32,000 nucleotides of DNA from Sulfolobus acidocaldarius DSM 639 (GTDB lineage: Archaea > Thermoproteota > Thermoprotei_A > Sulfolobales > Sulfolobaceae), in assembly GCF_000012285.1 (NCBI RefSeq), contig NC_007181.1, positions 270,001-302,000 of the forward strand, in the 5' to 3' direction. Both the position numbers and the translations under genes were made by a program. This document shows positions 2,291 to 29,536 of the stretch, one piece after another; position 1 is the first letter of the stretch, and the number at the start of each line of letters is the position of its first letter. The notes beneath the pieces are model-generated. The model saw only the letters and a list, made by a program, of their open reading frames with translations. It ran no database searches and was not told where the DNA came from.

Positions 2291-5190
2291 TTTTCCTCCA
2301 CCTGTATCCCTATTTGTTTTTTCCTCTCTTTTGTATGATACCTCCAGTTGTATGTAGGTAATGGATTATCTGTTTTGCTCCCTTCTTGCAGCCTTTCTAT
2401 AATAACAGGTGTATCCTTATACCCTGGAGTTCCACTGCCCTTATCTATTATTGGGGCAGTTAAGATGTTTACTCCCTTAGAAGGGTCTGAAGCGTATAAT
2501 GGTATAAATATCTCATCACCCTGAACCCTATCTGTTACTAGTGCTCTAGCCCTAATCTCTCCACCAAACTTCGATTTTACCATTATGAGATCTCCCGTAT
2601 TGATAGAGTACTTCTGAGCTAATTCTTTAGAGACCTCCACAAAAGTTTCAGGTACTCTCCCTGTGAGCCCGGCTACCCTCCTCGTCATATTACCAACATG
2701 GAAGTGCTCTAACACTCTTCCGCTATTTAGGGTTATCTTGTGAATTTCGTCTCTCATTTCAACTGGCTCAATCTCTAAAGGATACATTATAGCTTTACCA
2801 TCTGGAGTCTCAAATTTTTCAGTGTAAAGCAGAGGTGTGTCTCTTTCTTCATAAACTGGCCACAGCAGACTATTGAAGCCCTCTAATTTAGCGTAAGTCA
2901 CTCCACTAAATATGGGACATAGTTTAGCCACTTCATCCATTATATCTGAGGGATGTTTATAATTCCAGTTTGCCCCCATAGCATTAGCTATCATCTGTAT
3001 TATTTCCCAATCTGCTTTTGCTTCTCCAATAGGCTCCATTGCCTTGTAGAACCTCTGTATTCTCCTTTCAGTGTTTACAAATGTTCCGTCCTTTTCCAGA
3101 TTGGAAGCAACAGGTAGGACAACGTCAGCTAACTTAGCAGTTTCTGTCATGAACATGTCTTGCACTACGACAAAGTCAGCCTCCTCTAATGCTTTTCTGG
3201 TCAGAGGAGTACCACAGTCCACCATCACAGTGTCCTCTCCTATAATGTACAACCCGTGTATTTTACCTTCAAGAACTCCTTCAATCATCTGAGGAATTTG
3301 AAGACCGGGTTTTTCATTAAGTTTAGCCTTCCAGTTCTCTTCGAATTTTTTAATTACTCCCTCTTCAAACTTCTGATATCCTGGGAAATAGTTCGGTAAG
3401 CAGCCGAAATCACTAACACCTTGAACATTGTTATGACCCCTCATTGGGTAAGCCCCTGTGCCTGGTCTGCCATAATTACCAGTTAACAGTAAAAGATTAG
3501 ATATCATAGTTGATGTGTCAGCTCCGTTTACGTGTTGGGTAATCCCCATTCCCCAAAGAACAACTACGTTCTTAGCGTTGTGTATAAGTTCAGCTAGCTT
3601 AATTATTTGCTCCTTCGGCACGCCCGTTACAGATTCAACATAATCCAAGTTGAAACCTTCAATAGACTCCTTGAACTTCTCAAACCCATTCACACGATTC
3701 CTTATGAATTCCTTGTCCTCCCATCCGTTATCCAAAATGTATTTTGCTACGCCTGCGAGTATGATTGCGTCATTTCCTGGTTTTGATTTAATGAATAAGT
3801 CAGCCCACTCAGCTATTTCATGCCTTCTCACATCGATTACAGCAATTTTAGCTCCTCTTATCTTCTTTGCCCTCTTTACTTTACTGCCTATGACAGGGTG
3901 ACTCTCTGTGGTGTTATGACCAATCACAACAATTAGGTCGGCACTCTCAATATCCCTTATGGTTCCAGAGTCTGCTCCAAAGCCCACTGTCCTCCATAAT
4001 CCAACAGTTGCAGGAGCTTGGCAATACCTAGCAGAGTTGTCCACATTATTAGTTCCTAACACAGCTCTTGCGAATTTTTGGGCTAGATAAGCCTCTTCAT
4101 TACTCATTTTGTCTGACGCGATGACGCCTATAGCATCTGGACCGTATTTTTCTTTTATTTCTTTAAATTTCCTCGAAATAAGTGAGATAGCTTCTTCCCA
4201 CGTAGCCTCCCTGAACTTATCTCCCTCCCTTATCAAGGGTTTGGTGAGTCTATCTGGACTATTTACGAAATCCCACCCAAACTTTCCTTTAACACATGTA
4301 AGTATTCCATTTGCAGGAGACTCCGGTTTTGGTTCTATTTTTAATATTTTTCTTCCCTTAGTCCACACTTCGAACGAACATCCAACACCGCAATAAGTAC
4401 AAACTGTCTTCGTCCTTTTTATCTGAGTTTCCCTAGCCTTAGACTCCAATTCACTGAAAGTCATGAGCAGAGAAAAGTTGTCCTCTGCTTTCCCAATAGC
4501 CTCTATAGCTTTTCTCTTCAGATCCTTGTTTATCCAGGTAAAGAACCCTGCTTCACCTAGCATGCTCTTCTCCATCAATGCATTCACTGGACATACTGTT
4601 ACACAAGTCCCACAGTTAACACAGGAGGAATTTCCTATGGGATTGCCATTATCCCAGACTACTCTAGGTGGGTTTAAATTCCAATCGATCCAGATTACTT
4701 CATTTACAGCAAAATCTTGGCAAGCCTCAACACACCTACCGCATAGAATACATTGTGAAGGGTCATAAGTATAAAAAGGACCAGTATCATCTAAAGCATA
4801 TCCCTTATCCACATACTTCTGGGAGTTTATATTTAGCTTAATTACTGCTTCATGAAGCTCACAATCTCCATTATTATTTTCACAAATAGTACAGTACAAC
4901 TTGTGATATCGAAGTATTCTACTGACTGCAGTCTTCCTAGCATTTAATGCTCTAGGAGAATTAACGTTAATTGACATCCCTTCTACTGCCTTAATTGCAC
5001 ATGATCTAACAAGTTTACCGTTAACTTCCACTATACACGTATCACAACTTTGTATAGGTGTTAGACCAGTGTTGTAACATACATGAGGTACATAGAACCC
5101 TTTTTCCATAAGAGCTAAAGCTAGGCTTAATTCTGTATTCAGTTCCACCTCTTTACCATCAACTTTAACCCTTACGGAACCCATATTCAA
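2254..5190 (-). CDS. fdhA: formate dehydrogenase alpha subunit (molybdopterin oxidoreductase with NuoG-like Fe-S N-terminus), Cys-type
   Basis: 978 aa. The N-terminus has a 2Fe-2S pattern (CYNTGLTPIQSCDTCIVEVNGKLVRSC) and an H-x3-C-x2-C-x5-C site (HKLYCTICENNNGDC). Two ferredoxin motifs follow (CILCGRCVEAC, CVNCGTCVTVCP), then the MopB cluster CTYCGVGCSF. The active-site region ARYCQAP has Cys and there is no in-frame TGA. Confidence 0.9.
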   Translation of the reverse strand: MNMGSVRVKVDGKEVELNTELSLALALMEKGFYVPHVCYNTGLTPIQSCDTCIVEVNGKLVRSCAIKAVEGMSINVNSPRALNARKTAVSRILRYHKLYCTICENNNGDCELHEAVIKLNINSQKYVDKGYALDDTGPFYTYDPSQCILCGRCVEACQDFAVNEVIWIDWNLNPPRVVWDNGNPIGNSSCVNCGTCVTVCPVNALMEKSMLGEAGFFTWINKDLKRKAIEAIGKAEDNFSLLMTFSELESKARETQIKRTKTVCTYCGVGCSFEVWTKGRKILKIEPKPESPANGILTCVKGKFGWDFVNSPDRLTKPLIREGDKFREATWEEAISLISRKFKEIKEKYGPDAIGVIASDKMSNEEAYLAQKFARAVLGTNNVDNSARYCQAPATVGLWRTVGFGADSGTIRDIESADLIVVIGHNTTESHPVIGSKVKRAKKIRGAKIAVIDVRRHEIAEWADLFIKSKPGNDAIILAGVAKYILDNGWEDKEFIRNRVNGFEKFKESIEGFNLDYVESVTGVPKEQIIKLAELIHNAKNVVVLWGMGITQHVNGADTSTMISNLLLLTGNYGRPGTGAYPMRGHNNVQGVSDFGCLPNYFPGYQKFEEGVIKKFEENWKAKLNEKPGLQIPQMIEGVLEGKIHGLYIIGEDTVMVDCGTPLTRKALEEADFVVVQDMFMTETAKLADVVLPVASNLEKDGTFVNTERRIQRFYKAMEPIGEAKADWEIIQMIANAMGANWNYKHPSDIMDEVAKLCPIFSGVTYAKLEGFNSLLWPVYEERDTPLLYTEKFETPDGKAIMYPLEIEPVEMRDEIHKITLNSGRVLEHFHVGNMTRRVAGLTGRVPETFVEVSKELAQKYSINTGDLIMVKSKFGGEIRARALVTDRVQGDEIFIPLYASDPSKGVNILTAPIIDKGSGTPGYKDTPVIIERLQEGSKTDNPLPTYNWRYHTKERKKQIGIQVEEKWKREEFKPLTD

Positions 5191-5395: not shown

Positions 5396-6538
5396 TTAGG
5401 ATAACCAAAGTTTAGTTTCCTTCCTCTCTATATGGTCTATTATCCATGAAAGATTAACAGGATAGAACTTAGTTACATCGACTCCCACATTGATAGTTTT
5501 TAACTCTCCATTTACAAAAGGAAATTCTCTTAGCCTATTATTATGCACATGCCCATGAATATTCCAGACATTTCCTTGAGGACTAGGCTTATGGGTCAAC
5601 AGAAAGTCATATCCAGCGAAATTAAAGTACATGCTCTCTGGACCTACGCCTGGGACATCATGATTACCTTGTATGAAAACCTTGTTTCCCCTGAGCAAAC
5701 TCGTATATTCTTTCAGTTTCTTGTGGTTAATAGAGAAATCTCCCAATATGTAAACGGTGTCGTTGGGGGAAACAACTTCATTCCACCTCCTGATTATGAA
5801 GTCGTCCATTTCCTTTACTTCTATAAAAGGTCTAGAACAATACTTAATAATATTTTTATGACCAAAATGAGTATCCGCAACGAACCAAATATTCTCCCTC
5901 ATTGACATATTATCGATATTAACCTTCAGGAATTTCTCCCTATATGCCTTAAAGGTTTTTGACAGATATCTCTTGGATAGAGCTTGTTTCCTGACAAGGA
6001 GACTCTTCGTCGCAGTATCGTATTCTGCGACTATCTTACTATTTCCTAGCAAACAAATTCTTAAGGCAACTCCAGGATAGAGGAATTGCTTCAATCTTTC
6101 AAACTTATCAGTTTTTTCTATCTCCTTTAGTTCTTTTTCTGTAGTTCCAAAACTTATTGCTGCATGAAACCACAAACTTTCAGAGAATTTTTCCTTGCCT
6201 CGTTCAATCTTTATTAATGGCTTAAGCCTCTGGTATAGTTCCCTCTGAAGGGCTACTAATTCCATAGAAGGGCTAATGTTAAAAGCAAGCACTAGACCCT
6301 TAGAACCTCTCTTTATACTGATTCCATCAAACAAAAACCTTAGATCCTCATACTTTCCTGCAACATCAGATATAATCTGAGAAATTTCACTGATTTTCAC
6401 CAGAGGTTTAGGCTTAAATGAGTAAATTAGGGTTATATGAGGTATCTTATGAGTATTGTGTAAATGGAACCTGAATTTACGAAGGAATTGTTTCAACCTA
6501 TGCTTCTCCAACACTGGTCTAATCTCTATAAGATACAT
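5396..6538 (-). CDS. two-domain protein: N-terminal 2H-phosphoesterase-like (LigT-like) domain fused to a C-terminal calcineurin-like metallophosphoesterase
   Basis: The N-terminal half has one canonical HxT motif (PHITLIY) and a degenerate second one (FHAAIS). The C-terminal half has the metallophosphoesterase signature series ADTHFGH ... ILGDFS ... GNHD ... HGHVHNN. Confidence 0.6.
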   Translation of the reverse strand: MYLIEIRPVLEKHRLKQFLRKFRFHLHNTHKIPHITLIYSFKPKPLVKISEISQIISDVAGKYEDLRFLFDGISIKRGSKGLVLAFNISPSMELVALQRELYQRLKPLIKIERGKEKFSESLWFHAAISFGTTEKELKEIEKTDKFERLKQFLYPGVALRICLLGNSKIVAEYDTATKSLLVRKQALSKRYLSKTFKAYREKFLKVNIDNMSMRENIWFVADTHFGHKNIIKYCSRPFIEVKEMDDFIIRRWNEVVSPNDTVYILGDFSINHKKLKEYTSLLRGNKVFIQGNHDVPGVGPESMYFNFAGYDFLLTHKPSPQGNVWNIHGHVHNNRLREFPFVNGELKTINVGVDVTKFYPVNLSWIIDHIERKETKLWLS

Positions 6539-17470: not shown

Positions 17471-17713
17471 TTATTTCATTCTCTTGATAAGTATTCTAGT
17501 TGCATCTCCTTGTTGCTGGATATCTAGGATTTGATGACCTGTCCTCCTTGCCCAAGCCTCAATATCAGGTTTTGCAGCTGGGTCTGTTGCTAATACTTCT
17601 AATACTTCACCGACTTGTATCTGCTTTATAGCCTTAGCTGTCTCTAGAACGGGTCCAGGGCAATACATTCCCCTTGCATCAAGGGTTTTTGATATTTTTG
17701 CTTCTTGAGTCAC
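17471..17713 (-). CDS. tusA: sulfur carrier protein TusA
   Basis: 80 aa with a GTG start preceded by GGTGA. It has the canonical motif LDARGMYCPGPVLET and follows dsrE3A after an 11-nt gap. Confidence 0.9.
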   Translation of the reverse strand: MTQEAKISKTLDARGMYCPGPVLETAKAIKQIQVGEVLEVLATDPAAKPDIEAWARRTGHQILDIQQQGDATRILIKRMK

Positions 17714-17724
17714 TTTCTCTCACC

Positions 17725-18156
17725 TTAGATAAATAATGTAATTCCACCCTCAGCCCTATCTAAAAAAGTTGCCGCACCTACCACATCATCAACAAATTCC
17801 GCTAAATCCTCCCTCTTTACGCCAAAGAACTCCATTGTAGTTGAGCATGCGTACACTTTAACTTCGCCAACTTCTTTAGCTTGCTGAACTAATTGATGCC
17901 ACATGGGATACTTCATCTCTTGCATTCTCTGCATCATTATAGGTCCCATTTGCTCATAGTTCTTGTCTATCTGTGGGGGTTGTTGGCTGTGAATACTCCT
18001 CTTGGTAATTGACTGTAAACCCCAGAAGGTGAAGAACAGGTTAACCTCATAACCACCTGCAGCTGCTGCAGAAGATAAGATTCCTACTGGCATGAGCTTG
18101 TCTATTGTTCCTGAGAACACTATTATAGATAGTTTTTTCTTCTTTTCTTCTCCCAT
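17725..18156 (-). CDS. dsrE3A: DsrE3A-type sulfurtransferase
   Basis: 143 aa of the DsrE/DsrF family. The conserved Cys lies in VKVYACSTTMEF. GGTGA sits 5 nt upstream of the ATG. The dsrE3A-tusA-hdrC1 order matches the Metallosphaera-type arrangement as I recall it. Confidence 0.8.
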   Translation of the reverse strand: MGEEKKKKLSIIVFSGTIDKLMPVGILSSAAAAGGYEVNLFFTFWGLQSITKRSIHSQQPPQIDKNYEQMGPIMMQRMQEMKYPMWHQLVQQAKEVGEVKVYACSTTMEFFGVKREDLAEFVDDVVGAATFLDRAEGGITLFI

Positions 18157-18259
18157 TTTTTCACCAAATATTATTTTTGTTTTTGTTGTATATAACTTTT
18201 GAACTTAATTGCAAGCTCTACAAATTATGAATAAAGTAACAAAAACTTAAATAAGTACA

Positions 18260-18271
18260 AAAATATATAAT
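18260..18271 (+). promoter_or_regulatory. TATA-like box for dsrE2 operon
   Basis: The sequence aaaatatataat is centred about 26 nt upstream of the ATG at 18292, consistent with a leaderless archaeal transcript. Confidence 0.35.
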
Positions 18272-18291
18272 TCAATAAGAGGTAGTCAAGT

Positions 18292-18693
18292 ATGGAACAG
18301 GCTCAATCTGAGTCTCAGGCTGAGGAACAGAAAAAGAAAATCCTGATAGTTGTTACTCACGGACCAGACGATATTGACAGAACATATGCACCCTTATTTA
18401 TGGCTTCAATATCCGCCTCAATGGAGTACGAAACTTCAGTGTTCTTTATGATAAAAGGACCAAAACTATTGGATAAGAAGTGGCAAGAAGAGGAGAGAAG
18501 AAAGGGAGGTAATCCATTCATTAGGTTCTTCGACATGGCAAAAGAAAATGGTGTTAAAATGTACGTATGCGTGCAAAGTCTAAAAGATATGTGCCATATG
18601 AATGAGAGTGACATAGTAGATGGAGTTGAAATAGTAGGAGGATCAACACTAATAGATTTAACAATGGATGCTGACAGATCTCTATTCTTCTGA
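18292..18693 (+). CDS. dsrE2: DsrE2-like (soluble DsrE2B-type) DsrE-family protein
   Basis: 133 aa of the DsrE/DsrF family ([12 protein letters not shown]...; Cys in [11 protein letters not shown]). It is divergent from dsrE3A-tusA-hdrC1. No transmembrane segment is evident. Confidence 0.7.
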
Positions 18694-18699
18694 TCAATC

Positions 18700-20034
18700 A
18701 TGGAATATGATGTAGTGGTAGTAGGAGGAGGAACTGCAGGATATATTGCAGGAAGTATATTAGCAAGGAAAGGTAAAAAGGTACTGGTAACGGAGAGGGA
18801 AAGATTTGGAGGAGTTTGCGTAAATTACGGCTGTGTCCCAAGTATATTTTTTTATGATGTAACCTATTTTCTAAACAGAGGAAAGGAAATAGGAAATTAT
18901 CTTGGTATCGAGATAGAGACAAAGGAAAGCAAAAGATTTTTCCTAAGGAGAGACGAGCTTGTTTCTTACCTATCAGACGCAGGTAAAAGGCTGATAGAAA
19001 ATGCAGGTGGAGACACTGAGATTGGTGAAACAAGGATATTAACAAATAATAGGGTTAAAGTAAATGGTAAGGAAATTGACTTTAAGAGAATAATTATAGC
19101 CTCTGGTACAAAACCATTGAAACCTGAAATACAGGGTATAGAGAATGCAATAAGTGAAGATGAAGCAGTCAGACTGAACTATATACCTAGTTCTGTAGTT
19201 ATAATTGGTGGAGGATTTGCAGGCATAGAGTTAGCCCAATACTTTTCTCGACTAAACTCGAATGTCACATTAATCACCAGAGGAAAAATCCTCAGGACAT
19301 TTCCTGAAGATGCAGTTAACTTTTTGAGACAGTCTTTAGAATTTGACGGTGTAAAGTTAATTGAAAACACAAGAGTCACTAATATCTCGAAAAGGATAGT
19401 TGAAACAAATAAGGGAAATTTTGAGGGAGAAGTTGTAGTGTATGCGACGGGGAGAGAACCAGATTTACCAAAGGGAATTGAGAATATTAAAGTAATCACA
19501 GGTAAAAACGGAGTAATAACCAATGAAAGGCTTAGGGCTGGAGAAAATGTTTATGCAGTAGGAGACGTGGTAGATAAAGCGAATAAGACTGCGCATTCAG
19601 CCATGCTTGATGCCATCATATGCTCTATGGATATTCTTGGTATAGCTCATGCTAACGTAAAAGGTATTAAAATACCCAGAGTGCTTTACACAGACCCTCA
19701 AATAGGTGTCATAGGTGATATAAATGACGCAGTGAAGTTCGGATATTTCCCATTTAATGCATCAACCAGAGCGATAATTAGTGGAAACAGAGAAGGATAT
19801 GTGAAGATAGGAATAAACGAGAAAAATGAGATAGTTTTTGGGGAGGTCATTGGAGAAAAGGCAGAGGAGTTGATAAATATATTAACGTTGGCTGTGAACA
19901 GTAAAATGACCGTGGAACAACTTTCACTAATTCCCTTCGTTCATCCTTCTTTATCTGAAGCCATATTAAATTCAGCAAAGAGTTTTTTTGACCTAGACGT
20001 TGATAGATATAAGGAGAATAATGACTTTAAATGA
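18700..20034 (+). CDS. class I pyridine nucleotide-disulfide oxidoreductase (dihydrolipoamide dehydrogenase / glutathione reductase family)
   Basis: 444 aa. It has an FAD fold (YDVVVVGGGTAGY), the redox-active disulfide GGVCVNYGCVPS (Cys40/Cys45), a second dinucleotide fold (VVIIGGGFAGIE) and the C-terminal His-Glu motif FVHPSLSEA. The strand after the second fold reads VTLITRGKILRTF (R-x4-R, as in glutathione reductase) rather than the DLD-type acidic residue. It starts 6 nt after the dsrE2 stop. Confidence 0.8.
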   Translation: MEYDVVVVGGGTAGYIAGSILARKGKKVLVTERERFGGVCVNYGCVPSIFFYDVTYFLNRGKEIGNYLGIEIETKESKRFFLRRDELVSYLSDAGKRLIENAGGDTEIGETRILTNNRVKVNGKEIDFKRIIIASGTKPLKPEIQGIENAISEDEAVRLNYIPSSVVIIGGGFAGIELAQYFSRLNSNVTLITRGKILRTFPEDAVNFLRQSLEFDGVKLIENTRVTNISKRIVETNKGNFEGEVVVYATGREPDLPKGIENIKVITGKNGVITNERLRAGENVYAVGDVVDKANKTAHSAMLDAIICSMDILGIAHANVKGIKIPRVLYTDPQIGVIGDINDAVKFGYFPFNASTRAIISGNREGYVKIGINEKNEIVFGEVIGEKAEELINILTLAVNSKMTVEQLSLIPFVHPSLSEAILNSAKSFFDLDVDRYKENNDFK

Positions 20035-20362
20035 TTATATTAGAAAAAGAGGGCTCTCATTAGTCACAGACGGTAACACAAAGAAGATCCTTCTTGACGA
20101 TTATGAAATAAGAATAGAAGAGAGAAGAGTTATATTGCCTATACCCTTACCAACTGGAAAAGAGACTCTAGACGATCTCTTATCCATGGGAATAAAATAC
20201 GCTAGAGCCTCAAGAATATCTCAATTACTAGGCTCACCTTTGGAGTACTCAATTGAAGGAAATACTGTGTTTGTCATAAAGAAGTTTGAAAGCGAGAAGA
20301 GTCTTGAAGATTCACTTATTAAGGCATTAGACGGAATAGAGGGATTGAGGTACTTCTTATGA
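20021..20362 (+). CDS. hypothetical protein
   Basis: 113 aa from the ATG at 20021, which is preceded by aaggag; the track ORF starts at a TTG at 20000. It overlaps the 3' end of the upstream reductase gene and is ATGA-coupled to the downstream thioredoxin-fold gene. No recognisable motifs. Confidence 0.4.
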   Translation: MTLNDYIRKRGLSLVTDGNTKKILLDDYEIRIEERRVILPIPLPTGKETLDDLLSMGIKYARASRISQLLGSPLEYSIEGNTVFVIKKFESEKSLEDSLIKALDGIEGLRYFL

Positions 20363-20910
20363 GTTACGATAATATAATTAGAGAATACACAAGGGCAATT
20401 AAATCAAATATCACAATATATTATTGTGACGGAGAGGAGTTAATCAACTATCTGAAGGATGTGGTAGTAACTAAGCAATTGGAGGAGTGCCAAAAGCCTC
20501 TCATTAAGGTTCAAAAGGACAATAGAACATACTTTACTTATTATGGTATACCCACCGCCAATGAGTTATGGCCCTTTTTAAATGCACTAGCGAGAATATC
20601 TAATGATATAGTTCAACTCGACCAAAAGGAGATTGAATTAGCAAAAGGGATTAGAGGAAATATTAAACTATTTGTAACTCCAGATTGTACTAAATGCCCA
20701 ATAACCGCAGAATTTCTTTACCAGTTAGTTCAGATTAATCCAGACGTAACCCTAGAGATCTTTGACGTAACCGAGTATGAATACGAGAAGGAAAAATACA
20801 GGGTCTTAAGTGTACCAAAGATTGTATTCAACGAGAGGACTGAGATTCCTGGAGGGTTTCCTAGTACTATCATCCTCAAGATGATGATAAAAGCTCTTGA
20901 GAAGACATAA
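20359..20910 (+). CDS. thioredoxin-fold protein, PDO/glutaredoxin-like, single C-terminal CxxC (CTKC)
   Basis: 183 aa. The C-terminal half (IKLFVTPDCTKCPITAEFL ... LSVPKIVFN ... IPGGFP) resembles a thioredoxin-like domain. The N-terminal half is of similar length without CxxC, recalling the two-unit architecture of archaeal protein disulfide oxidoreductases. TGAGGT precedes the ATG. Confidence 0.6.
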   Translation: MSYDNIIREYTRAIKSNITIYYCDGEELINYLKDVVVTKQLEECQKPLIKVQKDNRTYFTYYGIPTANELWPFLNALARISNDIVQLDQKEIELAKGIRGNIKLFVTPDCTKCPITAEFLYQLVQINPDVTLEIFDVTEYEYEKEKYRVLSVPKIVFNERTEIPGGFPSTIILKMMIKALEKT

Positions 20911-21247
20911 CCCTTACCCCAAGATCTAACGCTTTCTTTTTAACGTCATCATTATCAGTTACAAGAAGGGCATTTAGCTCTACAGCAACCATTATCGCCT
21001 CGGACTCATAATCTGGTATACCTTCAATCTTAGGTGGTTTATGTGAAAAGGATCTCACTATTGCACCGTTATCCAATGCAATGTCTATGTTTACATGATT
21101 TCTCAACGCAAATGAAACTCCTAAAGTAGTGATTATTAGTTTATTTTCCCTGCCAAGGGACTTAAGGATTTCTTCTAATTTCTGAAAGGAGCTAGGTGAT
21201 ATAACTACATACATATATACTATATTCTCTAAGTGGGATTTATACAT
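20876..21247 (-). CDS. hypothetical protein, weak PIN-like (DUF3368/COG2405-like) resemblance
   Basis: 123 aa; the start could instead be the internal Met at 21214. The C-terminal segment YESEAIMVAVELNALLVTDNDDVKKKALDLGVRV resembles PIN-like nucleic-acid-binding proteins, but the N-terminal acidic residue is not evident. It is the last gene in the slpl-lipS operon direction. Confidence 0.3.
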   Translation of the reverse strand: MYKSHLENIVYMYVVISPSSFQKLEEILKSLGRENKLIITTLGVSFALRNHVNIDIALDNGAIVRSFSHKPPKIEGIPDYESEAIMVAVELNALLVTDNDDVKKKALDLGVRVMSSQELLSSS

Positions 21248-26336: not shown

Positions 26337-26777
26337 ATGAAAATTTCATTTTTCAATTTCCCAGACGATCTATTGTATGAACCTGAGAGACATGTGTGGA
26401 TTAAGGTCGAGGAAAATAAGGTTGTAAGTGTGGGCATGACCGATCTAGGGCAGTACCTTGCAGGAAAGATATTCCAAGTGTCTGTCCCTAGAAGGGTAGG
26501 AGAAAGGGTCAACAATAGAACCATACTGTTCTCAGTAGAAAGTGCAAAGTGGATAGGAAAAATAAGATTGCAAATAGAAGGTGAGGTGGTAGATATTAAT
26601 GAACGGGTTATAAAAAACCCATCAATAATTAATGAAGATCCATATGGAAGTTGGATTATTAAAGTCTCAGTTACTGACGTAGATCTTGTTAAGAGAGCAT
26701 TTAAGAACATACAAGATTGTAGAAGCCAATTTGAGGAGGAAGCAAATAGGATTGTGTCATGGAAAAATAGTTCCTGA
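26337..26777 (+). CDS. lbpA: GcvH-like lipoate-binding protein LbpA (copy 1)
   Basis: 146 aa with a GcvH fold signature: VGMTDLGQ, the lipoyl-Lys context VESAKWIG (Lys71, codon 26547-26549), EGEVVDINE and EDPYGSWIIKV. Confidence 0.85.
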   Translation: MKISFFNFPDDLLYEPERHVWIKVEENKVVSVGMTDLGQYLAGKIFQVSVPRRVGERVNNRTILFSVESAKWIGKIRLQIEGEVVDINERVIKNPSIINEDPYGSWIIKVSVTDVDLVKRAFKNIQDCRSQFEEEANRIVSWKNSS

Positions 26778-26890
26778 AGAGAGTCCTCAGAGTCCATTTA
26801 GTTTAGCTGGTAGAATACAGATTTATGTTGATGCAGATAATATAATAAAATAAAAAAGCCATTCATATTTTCTTTAAGGTAAATTTTATT

Positions 26891-26902
26891 TATTTAAATT
26901 TA
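26891..26902 (+). promoter_or_regulatory. TATA-like box for second lbpA
   Basis: The sequence tatttaaattta is centred about 27 nt upstream of the ATG at 26924, which suggests lbpA copy 2 has its own leaderless promoter. Confidence 0.35.
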
Positions 26903-26923
26903 GAGATATAGTATAGACCTATT

Positions 26924-27373
26924 ATGGTAGTAGAAGCTAATTGTGAAATCCCAGAAAACCTATACTATTATATTGATGGAAAGAACACAGTGTGGGTGAA
27001 AATAGAGGGAAGTGATATTGCGGTAGTTGGTATAACGGATTTAGCACAAACCATGGCAGGGAAAATTGTGAAGATAAGGATAAAGAAGAAAGGTATAAAA
27101 GTAGAGAGGGGAAGACCTGTAGCAACTCTAGAGAGCGGGAAATGGGCTGGACCAGTGCCTGCACCAGTTTCCGGTGAGGTAGTGGATTCCAACTCAGAAG
27201 TTGAAAAAAGCCCTGTGATCTTAAACAGAGATCCTTATGGTCAAGGATGGATCGCAAAGATTAAAATTAGTAACCAGGAGGAAGTTAAGCAATTATTAAC
27301 AGGACAGCAAGCTATACAAAAACTCAAGGAGATTATAACCTCAGAGAAATTAACATGTAAGAGGCTACAGTAA
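26924..27373 (+). CDS. lbpA: GcvH-like lipoate-binding protein LbpA (copy 2)
   Basis: 149 aa with VGITDLAQ, the lipoyl-Lys context LESGKWAGPVPAPVSGEVV (Lys73, codon 27140-27142) and RDPYGQGWIAKI. Its stop overlaps the start of the next ligase gene by 1 nt (TAATG). Confidence 0.9.
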   Translation: MVVEANCEIPENLYYYIDGKNTVWVKIEGSDIAVVGITDLAQTMAGKIVKIRIKKKGIKVERGRPVATLESGKWAGPVPAPVSGEVVDSNSEVEKSPVILNRDPYGQGWIAKIKISNQEEVKQLLTGQQAIQKLKEIITSEKLTCKRLQ

Positions 27374-28664: not shown

Positions 28665-29114
28665 ATGACAAAGGAAAGGGTAAATCAATTAGAGTTAGAG
28701 GTCGAAGCAATTGTTGAAGTCGATGGAAAGGAATATAAAGTGGTAACAGTTCCTACAGCTGAGGAATACACAGGTTTTCCTCCCTCATGGGAGTTTGTGA
28801 AAGCTAATATGTTAAAATGGAAACCTTACTTTAAAGCAAAAATGCTAAATTTTAATGGTCAATTAATCCCCGCGTTAGAAAACGTCTTACTGAATATGGA
28901 GGAGAATATGTATGAGTTTTTACTCGACATATACTATACCTTTAAGGTAAACAGACCCTCTATTGAAACAAATATTAGTACAGTAATCACAAGACAAATA
29001 GAAAGGCTTGAAGAAAAATTGAACAGAACCTTCAACGAGAAAGAGAGGACTGATCTTTACATAAAATATGGTATAGAGGCAGCTATCCTTAAGGATATAG
29101 GTGTAATAAATTGA
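28665..29114 (+). CDS. hypothetical protein
   Basis: 149-aa ORF with no recognisable motif. It overlaps the downstream OsmC-family gene by 4 nt. Confidence 0.4.
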   Translation: MTKERVNQLELEVEAIVEVDGKEYKVVTVPTAEEYTGFPPSWEFVKANMLKWKPYFKAKMLNFNGQLIPALENVLLNMEENMYEFLLDIYYTFKVNRPSIETNISTVITRQIERLEEKLNRTFNEKERTDLYIKYGIEAAILKDIGVIN

Positions 29115-29536
29115 CAATAATCACATTTACGGCTGAAGGAGAATTTTCGGGGGATAAGGTAACTATAACAATAATGGACGATCAAATTCTAGAAGTTGGA
29201 ACTTTAGGCTCCAATTATGTTAAACCTGAGGAACTATGTCTAGCTTCAGCGTTGTCATGTCTTATACTAACAGTTAATTACATTGCAAAGGAGAAAGGGG
29301 TAGACGTGAAAGGGATAGAGGGTTATATAGAGGGAAAGTTAGATCCTGATGGATTTCAAGGTAAAAACAGTGTACCACCAGGCTTGCTCGAAGTCAATTA
29401 CCATATCTCAGTTAAGTCTAATGATACCAAGATTAATGAGGTTATAGAGGAGGCTGAAAGGAGGTGCCCCATGAAAGATACATTGACAAGAGGAATAAAA
29501 GTGAATATAAGGTGGAAAATAGAAGAGACTAATTGA
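29111..29536 (+). CDS. OsmC/Ohr-family peroxiredoxin-like protein
   Basis: 141 aa with a TTG start 8 nt after AGGTG. The two conserved Cys contexts of the family are present: PEELCLASALSCLILTV and RCPMKDTL. Confidence 0.75.
   Translation: MTIITFTAEGEFSGDKVTITIMDDQILEVGTLGSNYVKPEELCLASALSCLILTVNYIAKEKGVDVKGIEGYIEGKLDPDGFQGKNSVPPGLLEVNYHISVKSNDTKINEVIEEAERRCPMKDTLTRGIKVNIRWKIEETN

Follow-up and report, generated by a model that had tools for sequence, protein, structure and literature searches.

The closest described counterparts of the locus analysed here are the Mcup_0681-0678 operon of Metallosphaera cuprina, in which Mcup_0681 is DsrE3A (Liu et al. 2014, PMC4175335), and the Sso1125-1120 genes of Saccharolobus solfataricus. 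Both list, in the same order, dsrE3A, a 'putative dihydrolipoamide dehydrogenase', a hypothetical protein, and a 'putative thioredoxin' or atypical PDO. A route from the lipoyl protein LbpA through dihydrolipoamide dehydrogenase (DLD) to NAD+ has been proposed (PMC4175335, PMC6067878), and Cao et al. (2018, PMC6067878) termed the archaeal flavoprotein a 'bona fide' DLD that passes LbpA electrons to NAD+. The latter paper also describes LbpA as genetically essential for sHdr sulfur oxidation in bacteria. PMC7820114, citing Limauro et al. 2014, reports that the 'atypical PDO' Sso1120 interacts with the putative DLD Sso1123 and does not work with Sulfolobus peroxiredoxins; the same paper describes a 12-34-fold induction of Sso1120-1135 on phenol, which its authors interpreted as oxidative-stress defence. 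Here we analysed the orthologous operon of Sulfolobus acidocaldarius DSM 639 in a stretch of 32,000 nucleotides (hereafter, the window; positions 270,001-302,000 of the single-contig, 2,225,959-bp genome, 100% complete; G+C 37%), with a focus on its second gene, which encodes a 444-aa flavoprotein disulfide reductase (hereafter, the reductase).

As in the two described operons, the genes are divergent from dsrE2B-tusA-hdr, and nothing essential differs. S. acidocaldarius differs in a four-gene operon of the SQR type inserted between hdrB1 and hdrC2, and in carrying Arg at both positions of the coenzyme loop of the reductase, the second of which lacks a basic residue in Saccharolobus- and Metallosphaera-labelled sequences. 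The operon, the link to LbpA, and the thioredoxin-like partner are already known. A preliminary description of this sequence had proposed a link between LbpA and the pyridine nucleotide pool, with the CTKC protein encoded by the last gene as a possible intermediate; both ideas are already in print (PMC4175335, PMC6067878, and PMC7820114). What appears to be new relative to the literature found is that the 'DLD' is a distinct and narrow variant, with an NADP-type loop, a lost lysine, an acidic tail, and co-variation with the pair of small proteins encoded downstream, a 113-aa protein (hyp) and a 183-aa PDO-like protein (PDO).

Family placement and active site of the reductase

The reductase matched Pyr_redox_2 (160 bits), Pyr_redox (74 bits), and Pyr_redox_dim (64 bits) in Pfam, indicating the architecture of a class I flavoprotein disulfide reductase, and it is 97% identical to a protein labelled Sulfolobus acidocaldarius SUSAZ. 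Its best NCBIfam match is lipoamide_DH (TIGR01350) with 281.8 bits, which is below the cut-off of 408.8, and the closest solved structures are E3 enzymes with approximately 30% identity (E 4e-46). As judged from its sequence, the 444-aa flavoprotein is a DLD-family-derived but separate, Sulfolobaceae-restricted enzyme and not a canonical E3. It shares with E. coli Lpd and the T. thermophilus E3 (2EQ6/2EQ7), again at approximately 30% identity, the fold, the domain order, the CxxxxC motif, and the His-Glu dyad of the partner subunit. In contrast to these E3 enzymes, its second Rossmann strand ends in Thr-Arg rather than Glu-x, and it has Ile rather than Lys after the redox disulfide, a Tyr/Phe gate residue, a conserved acidic C-terminal tail, a clade of its own, and no E2 partner in the genome.

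In a maximum likelihood tree of 89 family members (a quick search under LG+G4 with SH-aLRT support only, in which the rows are biased toward the best matches of the query), the sHdr-linked reductases formed their own clade with an SH-aLRT of 100% and a stem of 0.51. The sister of this clade (90%) is a long-branched paralogue from S. acidocaldarius. A phylogeny had been suggested in the preliminary description, and this one, a quick tree with weak deep nodes, places the reductase outside the group of E. coli Lpd and Bacillus DLD and outside the glutathione reductase (GR) clade, the latter being separate with 100% support. In an exhaustive profile search of 1.84 billion representatives at 50% identity, no more than four clusters exceeded 440 bits; scores then fell to 312 bits, at the head of a continuum of ordinary relatives.

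Membership in several neighbouring families was considered and rejected. The scores against the GR models were 204.8 bits for NF004776 (cut-off 480) and 198 for TIGR01424 (cut-off 606), in line with the position outside the GR clade. For MerA, the score was 227 against 454 bits, and the tail lacks the C-terminal Cys-Cys pair. High-Mr thioredoxin reductase (TrxR) was rejected on the C-terminus, ...FFDLDVDRYKENNDFK, which is Cys-free, and on a score of 108 against 476 for TGR. RclA, SthA, and CoA-disulfide reductase were ruled out by model scores, the tail without Cys, and the tree position.

The catalytic residues C40, C45, H415, and E420 are invariant in 35 orthologues, and the two dinucleotide folds are formed around GGGTAG (residues 9-14) and GGGFAG (residues 170-175). 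The preliminary description regarded the catalytic set as complete. This holds for CVNYGC, the two folds, and HPSLSE, but not for the Lys of the GC[IV]PSK motif that follows the redox disulfide, which is replaced by Ile49 in the reductase. The replacement is a mark of the clade: this position is Ile or Val in 27/27 clade members and Lys in 59/62 other family rows, and among the library representatives it is Ile in the top four clusters and Lys in 145 of the next 146. We take this Lys to pair with a conserved Glu near the flavin N5; the Glu itself is kept in the reductase as Glu177 (E177). The tail after HPSLSE is conserved in the clade, acidic, and Cys-free, with the motif F[FY]xLDVDR[FY]K.

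The coenzyme-specificity loop reads VVE203-M-FDQVI-P210 in E. coli Lpd, LFV-R-KHAPL-R in E. coli Gor, and LIT193-R194-GKIL-R199 in the reductase, which carries a one-residue deletion. T193, R194, and R199 align with E203, M204, and P210 of Lpd and with V, R, and R of Gor. The first pair of the loop is [T/S/A][R/K] in 24/26 clade rows, and an acidic residue at the position of Lpd Glu203 is absent in 34/35 orthologues. The second basic residue is less constant: 24/35 orthologues have R or K there, and S, P, Q, or E takes its place in others, among them the Saccharolobus- and Metallosphaera-labelled sequences. The absence of the acidic residue typical of NAD-type DLD, as first described for this gene, is borne out by T193 and by the conserved pair. 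The accompanying claim that R-x4-R is the GR pattern holds only in part: the two Arg align with those of Gor, but GR proper has R-x5-R. The R-x4-R spacing presumably matches that of mammalian TrxR. Swapping these loop positions reportedly inverts the coenzyme preference of E. coli GR and Lpd in the work of Scrutton (1990, Perham) and Bocanegra (1993). From these loop residues, the reductase most likely uses NADP(H) rather than NAD(H).

The gate position of the second fold, GGG[Y/F]AG, is Tyr or Phe in 21/26 clade rows and, from the alignment, resembles the Tyr of NADPH enzymes, whose function as a gate in GR and TrxR has been described (PMC10535113). The reductase thus shares with the NADPH sites of GR and high-Mr TrxR two Arg at the aligned 2'-phosphate positions and the aromatic gate residue before them. 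Unlike these enzymes, it is not in the GR clade, scores far below the GR and TGR cut-offs, and has no C-terminal redox centre.

A further possibility, also raised in the preliminary description, is that the reductase is the E3 of a 2-oxoacid dehydrogenase complex encoded elsewhere. This was rejected for a genome without E2 or E1: a search of the complete genome gave no match to the E2 acyltransferase family PF00198, and no E1 was found in it, the only Transket_pyr match being a split transketolase in an aromatic amino-acid operon. Besides the reductase, the genome encodes two group-1 paralogues: a true MerA (592 bits), next to an ArsR-type regulator, and a 427-aa DLD-like protein with CIPSK and VVE-K (genome positions 106078-107289, minus strand). 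The latter lies beside an aldo-keto reductase gene and ThiC and scores 273.7 bits against the TIGR01350 cut-off of 408.8. Neither DLD-like protein of the genome reaches that cut-off. The NAD-type 427-aa paralogue is kept in 5/5 related genomes tested. GcvT, GcvH, and GcvPA/PB are encoded at 1.179-1.183 Mb with no adjoining DLD gene. On these features, the 427-aa paralogue would be the likelier L-protein of glycine cleavage, which is unlikely as a role for the reductase; the latter fits better, functionally, with sHdr. The L-protein role fits the NAD-type paralogue better because one genome discussed below (G090) keeps GcvT and this paralogue without sHdr and without the reductase.

The operon and its conservation with the sHdr-LbpA system

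According to the Pfam annotation of the surrounding genes, the window covers the archaeal-type (type I) sHdr-LbpA sulfur-oxidation supercluster of S. acidocaldarius; the operon flanks the sHdr-LbpA genes, much as first described. The arrangement hdrC1B1A-hyp-hdrC2B2 is present with lbpA and sLpl/LipS1/LipS2 genes close by; the underlying matches are CCG, Fer4, an HdrA-like flavoprotein, two GcvH-like, two LplA-like, and two radical-SAM genes. The operon consists of four co-directional open reading frames (ORFs) for DsrE3A, the reductase, hyp, and the PDO-like protein. Their spacing (a 6-nt gap at 18694-18699, a 14-nt overlap at 20021-20034, and an ATGA overlap at 20359-20362) was found as first reported, and the motifs quoted at that time (CVNYGC, two dinucleotide folds, HPSLSE, and CTKC) were all located in the sequence. 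The features of the window that bear on the argument are as follows.

17471..17713, minus strand: tusA, 80 aa, last gene of the divergent dsrE2B-tusA-hdrC2 arm (Pfam TusA, E 8e-27; adjoins dsrE2B in 18/18 related loci)
17725..18156, minus strand: dsrE2B, 143 aa, divergent from the operon (Pfam DrsE_2, E 2.6e-26; PDB 2QS7, E 1e-86)
18157..18291, no strand: AT-rich divergent intergenic region, 135 bp (direct sequence reading)
18292..18693, plus strand: dsrE3A, 133 aa, first gene of the operon (Pfam DsrE, E 9e-24; PDB 3MC3, E 5.6e-78)
18700..20034, plus strand: DLD-family flavoprotein disulfide reductase, 444 aa (Pfam Pyr_redox_2, Pyr_redox, Pyr_redox_dim)
18817..18846, plus strand: redox-active CVNYGC (C40, C45), then VPSI with Ile49 (alignment with clade and family)
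19264..19302, plus strand: coenzyme-specificity loop VTLITRGKILRTF, residues 189-201 with T193, R194, and R199 (alignment to Lpd and Gor)
19942..19959, plus strand: HPSLSE, residues 415-420, with the His415/Glu420 acid-base dyad (H415, P416, S417, and E420 invariant in 35 orthologues)
20021..20362, plus strand: 113-aa protein, hyp (no Pfam or NCBIfam match)
20359..20910, plus strand: atypical PDO-like protein, 183 aa, with CTKC (C110, C113) at nt 20686-20697 (Pfam Thioredoxin_17 and Thioredoxin_3)
26337..27373, plus strand: two tandem lbpA genes, 146 aa and 149 aa, candidate lipoyl substrates (PF01597, 142.5 and 98.6 bits; GcvH-like in Pfam and NCBIfam)
29111..29536, plus strand: osmC-like gene (Pfam OsmC, E 1.3e-20)

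The annotated genes around the operon include TauE, then hdrB and hdrC, a gene of hypothetical function, hdrA, and another hdrB-like gene. The inserted tusA/SQR-like/dsrE/DUF1641 operon comes next and then hdrC, tusA, and dsrE2B, all on the minus strand, before the target operon on the plus strand. Beyond it lie an M23-like gene, two radical-SAM genes, and an LplA-like gene on the minus strand, and further on the two tandem GcvH-like lbpA genes, a second LplA-like gene, and the OsmC-like gene. A/T-rich boxes were found approximately 20-45 nt upstream of the dsrE3A ATG, and the 135-bp intergenic region presumably carries both divergent promoters. The end of the operon is marked by a convergent 123-aa ORF (20876-21247, minus strand) with a weak PIN_5 match (E 8e-4), which overlaps the 3' end of the PDO gene by 35 nt.

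We examined conservation in 47 Sulfolobaceae species genomes and 132 genomes of other families in the order. The reductase was found in 44/47 Sulfolobaceae genomes, sHdrB in 43/47, and the reductase in none of the 132 genomes from the other families. Absence of the gene from related hdr loci had been named in the preliminary description as an outcome that would speak against its proposal; instead, all 43 genomes with sHdrB carry the reductase, although the Sulfolobaceae genomes are close kin, so that this near-universal co-occurrence carries little statistical weight. Neither gene was found in G090 (98% complete) or in two genomes that are very incomplete, and one genome of 83% completeness (G164) has the reductase without sHdrB. 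The joint absence in G090 is the informative case: this genome lacks sHdr, the reductase, hyp, a PDO orthologue, and OsmC, but GcvT is retained, as is an orthologue of the NAD-type paralogue with 56% identity.

The minus-strand pair tusA and dsrE2B, divergent from dsrE3A, reductase, hyp, and PDO, was found in 18/18 loci from 8 genera, and dsrE3A lies directly upstream of the reductase in 4 further, more divergent loci. Rates of divergence differ between the parts. Across genera, DsrE3A, DsrE2B, and HdrB are approximately 80-90% identical (80-89% for HdrB), and TusA mostly so, down to 74%, whereas the reductase, hyp, and PDO are only 42-66% identical.

One genus (g64, represented by G174, 99% complete, and G175, 87%) carries dsrE3A-reductase pairs far from hdr (approximately 240 kb in G174), and neither of its genomes yielded a hyp or PDO orthologue. 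The loop of its reductases reads VTL[VL]TE..., with Glu for Arg194. Because the g64 sequences are nested within the clade, this Glu is, on the tree, a secondary change. The co-variation of the loop with the loss of hyp and PDO is suggestive only and amounts to a single evolutionary event. Separately, the most divergent member of the reductase clade (genome G161; 37% identity, a T-H-G-E loop, and CIRTGC) is not beside dsrE3A. In that genome (C1:930648-937940), it belongs to a string of osmC, a gene for a 213-aa unknown protein, and the reductase, with ORFs at 5419-5865(-), 4362-5003(-), and 2992-4293(-).

OsmC travels with the system as well. The osmC gene follows lbpA2 and the second ligase gene, and across genomes it lies mostly 1-8 kb from lbpA. 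OsmC was found in 43/47 Sulfolobaceae genomes and is missing from exactly the four without sHdrB. OsmC/Ohr proteins are cited as lipoyl-dependent peroxidases, for which GcvH-like donors have been proposed (preprint 10.64898/2026.10.01.755906), and by its family and position this OsmC may be a lipoyl-LbpA-dependent peroxidase. The 149-aa ORF that overlaps its start (28665-29114, plus strand) had no Pfam match. Outside the window, approximately 6 kb upstream, lies the gene for a stand-alone 82-aa lipoyl-domain protein (genome positions 263558-263806, plus strand), flanked by an LplA-like gene, a radical-SAM (LipA-like) gene, and a second LplA/LipB-like gene. This would make a possible third lipoylation set, and the 82-aa protein a fourth possible lipoyl acceptor, in a genome without E2.

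DsrE3A and the two small proteins

The preliminary description named the first gene of the operon dsrE2. It is instead an orthologue of PDB 3MC3 (SSO1125, E 5.6e-78), and its 84-90% identity across genera in the related loci, the retention of Cys93 and Cys101, its orthology to SSO1125/Mcup_0681, and the gene order described by Liu et al. (2014, PMC4175335) identify it, on sequence grounds, as dsrE3A, encoding a putative thiosulfonate/sulfur carrier. The real DsrE2B is encoded by the divergent 143-aa gene at 17725-18156, which matches PDB 2QS7 (E 1e-86); 3MC3 and 2QS7 are named DsrE3A and DsrE2B in PMC11094781. The 6-nt spacer leaves dsrE3A and the reductase gene in frame, so that one substitution fuses both. 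A 566-aa protein (P0016) from a 2094-nt metagenomic contig is such an in-frame read-through, with the dsrE3A stop codon changed to Trp and the junction ...FFWPNMEYD.... We discarded it as a Rosetta-stone fusion, since it is a single sequence on a contig of approximately 2 kb and may be an error or a gene-calling artefact.

The 183-aa protein matched Pfam Thioredoxin_17 (E 1.9e-41) and Thioredoxin_3, and PDB 4MNN with E 1.6e-77, and is by sequence the orthologue of the Sso1120 'atypical PDO' (4MNN). It is related to the classical PDOs 1A8L, 1J08, and 2YWM at approximately 1e-22 and to the N-terminal domain of AhpF at 1e-3, and its AlphaFold2 (AF2) model (mean pLDDT 92.9) contains two Trx-fold beta-alpha-beta units. 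It thus shares two tandem Trx folds with the AhpF N-terminal domain and with archaeal PDOs (PfPDO 1A8L, 1J08, and 2YWM). The second unit holds CTKC (110-113) and the cis-Pro P153, a placement shared with the N-terminal domain of AhpF and with the corresponding unit of classical PDOs. With one CxxC instead of one per fold, the protein scored 80.2 bits against the TIGR02187 cut-off of 185. The description of a single-CxxC thioredoxin-fold protein is correct but incomplete: classical PDOs have two CxxC, whereas this protein has one and two more invariant Cys in the N-terminal unit, C23 and C44. C23, C44, C110, C113, and P153 are invariant across the PDO-like orthologues. C23, in a motif C-[KD]-[AG]-[EDS], occupies the beta1-alpha1 junction of the first unit, the position expected for an active site in a Trx fold. 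C23 and C44 might be joined in a structural disulfide or provide a monothiol/persulfide site.

No Cys is conserved in the 113-aa protein, which was found in 40/47 Sulfolobaceae genomes. It had no Pfam or NCBIfam match, and a profile search of PDB sequences gave none below E 0.48. Its AF2 model (mean pLDDT 90.5) is alpha-beta4-alpha-beta2-alpha. The top Foldseek matches are T3S-chaperone-like, with probabilities of 0.97-1.0 and TM values of only 0.4-0.5 (approximately 0.45); a protein-language-model search points weakly to the CesT/SycN/YbjN clan (0.84-0.88), and comparison with structure representatives by VIA-align gave Z ≤ 6.4, inside the noise of the tool. With low confidence, we suggest from the model that the protein is a non-redox adaptor with a CesT/YbjN-like fold. 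The end of hyp coincides with the start of PDO nearly everywhere, indicating translational coupling, and the pair stays joined even when detached from the reductase (genus g59). A complex prediction for PDO and the 113-aa protein gave a median score of 0.02 against a mark of 0.32, which neither supports nor opposes binding.

Possible electron routes and their meaning

We tentatively favour a reading in which the reductase is an NADP(H)-linked dithiol-relay enzyme with lipoyl-LbpA as the direct substrate and the PDO-like protein as a second station. From the observed gene order, conservation, family placement, motif changes, and co-occurrence, we infer the coenzyme, the substrates, the direction, and every protein contact in this scheme. 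The predicted FAD site, Cys40/Cys45, and His415'/Glu420' support a reversible two-electron exchange between pyridine nucleotide and a dithiol, for which the genomic evidence offers three candidate partners: lipoyl-LbpA, the CTKC of PDO, and Cys93/Cys101 of DsrE3A. We favour lipoyl-LbpA as the direct substrate because access to DLD-type sites is by a swinging arm or a C-terminal redox tail, and the tail here is Cys-free. In the proposed mechanism, FAD and the Cys40/Cys45 disulfide would exchange two electrons with the dithiol on a flexible arm, the lipoyl-lysine of LbpA, His415'/Glu420' would act as the acid-base pair, and the flavin would exchange hydride with NADP(H). While sHdr oxidises sulfane sulfur and reduces LbpA, the reductase would re-oxidise dihydrolipoyl-LbpA to form NADPH; when no sulfur is oxidised, it could run in reverse, from NADPH to LbpA. 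The PDO-like protein, co-made with the adaptor-like 113-aa protein, would receive electrons from the reductase either directly or via the lipoyl arm, and its task would be to reset DsrE3A and TusA from disulfide, persulfide, or thiosulfonate states. The same types of parts, a DLD-family enzyme, a lipoyl protein, and a CxxC protein in series, make up the Lpd-DlaT-AhpD-AhpC relay of M. tuberculosis, an analogy drawn for Sso1123 and Sso1120 in PMC7820114. The relay proposed here differs in having a two-Trx-fold PDO rather than AhpD, a GcvH-like LbpA rather than an E2, and probably NADPH as the coenzyme.

Several observations weigh against this reading. The second Arg of the loop is lacking in 11/35 orthologues and is not a feature of the clade; loop motifs predict coenzyme preference imperfectly; and loss of the conserved Lys may shift the chemistry away from that of a classical E3. 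The reductase is operonic with dsrE3A and PDO, and lbpA is approximately 6 kb away in separate units. The stronger divergence of the reductase, hyp, and PDO is easier to reconcile with an accessory role than with a core role in energy conservation. The whole set is kept in S. acidocaldarius, although this species is not known to use sulfur oxidation for growth. Moreover, bacterial sHdr clusters do not contain such a reductase gene (PMC6067878).

One alternative is a split system of the TrxR/AhpF type, in which electrons would pass from NADPH through the flavoprotein to the CTKC of PDO, with the 113-aa protein as a docking adaptor and LbpA as no substrate at all. We consider this somewhat unlikely, and equally doubtful is its continuation, in which PDO would reduce oxidised DsrE3A (Cys93/Cys101) or free thiosulfate or sulfide from TusA/DsrE3A adducts. 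It accounts well for the operonic association with dsrE3A and PDO in 18/18 loci and for the dsrE3A-reductase adjacency in divergent loci, for the nearly general translational coupling of hyp and PDO, and for a basic loop that co-occurs with this pair and is replaced by Glu in the genus without it. In addition, flavoprotein reductases act on homologues of PDO, namely classical PDOs and the N-terminal domain of AhpF; an interaction of Sso1120 with Sso1123 is reported in PMC7820114; and the release of thiosulfate from TusA-thiosulfonate driven by DsrE3A needs two electrons (PMC4175335). On the other hand, DLD-type sites are buried, and relatives that reduce proteins or metals carry a C-terminal Cys/Sec pair that the tail here lacks. 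The reductase is kept in g64 (G174, 99% complete) and in G164 (83% complete) with no hyp or PDO orthologue found, which points to a job independent of PDO, and the joint loss of the reductase with LbpA-dependent sHdr and OsmC would be left unexplained.

The lipoyl arm is retained in a reductive and protective relay for antioxidant or reactive-sulfur defence, from NADPH through the flavoprotein and lipoyl-LbpA to an OsmC-type peroxidase and/or PDO, for which the M. tuberculosis relay is the model; the chemistry would be as in the favoured mechanism, while the direction would be reductive and the purpose protection instead of a gain in energy or NADPH. The exact joint absence of OsmC and sHdrB and the mostly 1-8 kb distance of osmC from lbpA are consistent with it, as are the osmC-unknown-reductase string around the divergent homologue in G161 and NADPH as the usual reductant of thiol defence systems. 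To our knowledge, the cluster is also kept in species not known to grow by sulfur oxidation. Published support comes from the phenol induction of Sso1120-1135 and its reading as oxidative-stress defence (PMC7820114), and from the proposal of GcvH-like proteins as OsmC donors (preprint 10.64898/2026.10.01.755906). However, PMC7820114 reports that Sso1120 does not work with Sulfolobus peroxiredoxins, and LbpA is essential for bacterial sHdr sulfur oxidation (PMC6067878). Since all parts travel together, co-occurrence cannot separate this relay from the favoured mechanism; on balance, we regard it as unlikely. An ordinary NAD+-dependent DLD, serving as E3 or L-protein for glycine cleavage and any lipoyl protein and placed beside hdr by chance or convenience, would explain why the best family match is lipoamide_DH, why the nearest solved structures are E3s, and why GcvT/H/P have no adjoining DLD gene, and it agrees with the 'bona fide' label (PMC6067878). 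We judge it very unlikely, given the score below the equivalog cut-off, the absence of Glu203 and the conserved Lys, and the presence, here and in 5/5 related genomes tested, of a paralogue in which both features are canonical, including G090, which keeps glycine cleavage without the reductase and sHdr; moreover, the S. acidocaldarius genome has no E2.

In the literature found, the exit of electrons from sHdr-LbpA is still only a proposal, and the published models place an NAD+-dependent E3 at the archaeal exit. The signatures described here warn against transferring the annotation 'dihydrolipoamide dehydrogenase, EC 1.8.1.4' to the sHdr-linked clade. In a bolder and rather doubtful extension, the flavoprotein would be no lipoamide dehydrogenase but the founding member of a Sulfolobaceae-specific reductase type, with an NADPH site and a flavin pocket reshaped by the Lys-to-Ile replacement, and it would either form, with the CesT/YbjN-like adaptor and the single-CxxC PDO, a three-protein machine acting on DsrE3A/TusA thiosulfonate or persulfide, or pass sulfur electrons to NADPH for the 3-hydroxypropionate/4-hydroxybutyrate cycle. 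In Sulfolobales, NADPH is consumed by the 3-hydroxypropionate/4-hydroxybutyrate cycle. If the archaeal enzyme is indeed NADP(H)-specific and altered in mechanism, sulfur oxidation could feed NADPH directly to this carbon-fixation cycle, and the reductase, PDO, and the adaptor-like protein could make up a module dedicated to thiol reset or defence of sulfur carriers. Such a route from sulfur electrons to NADPH would, if true, answer how lithoautotrophic Sulfolobales supply NADPH without reverse electron flow.

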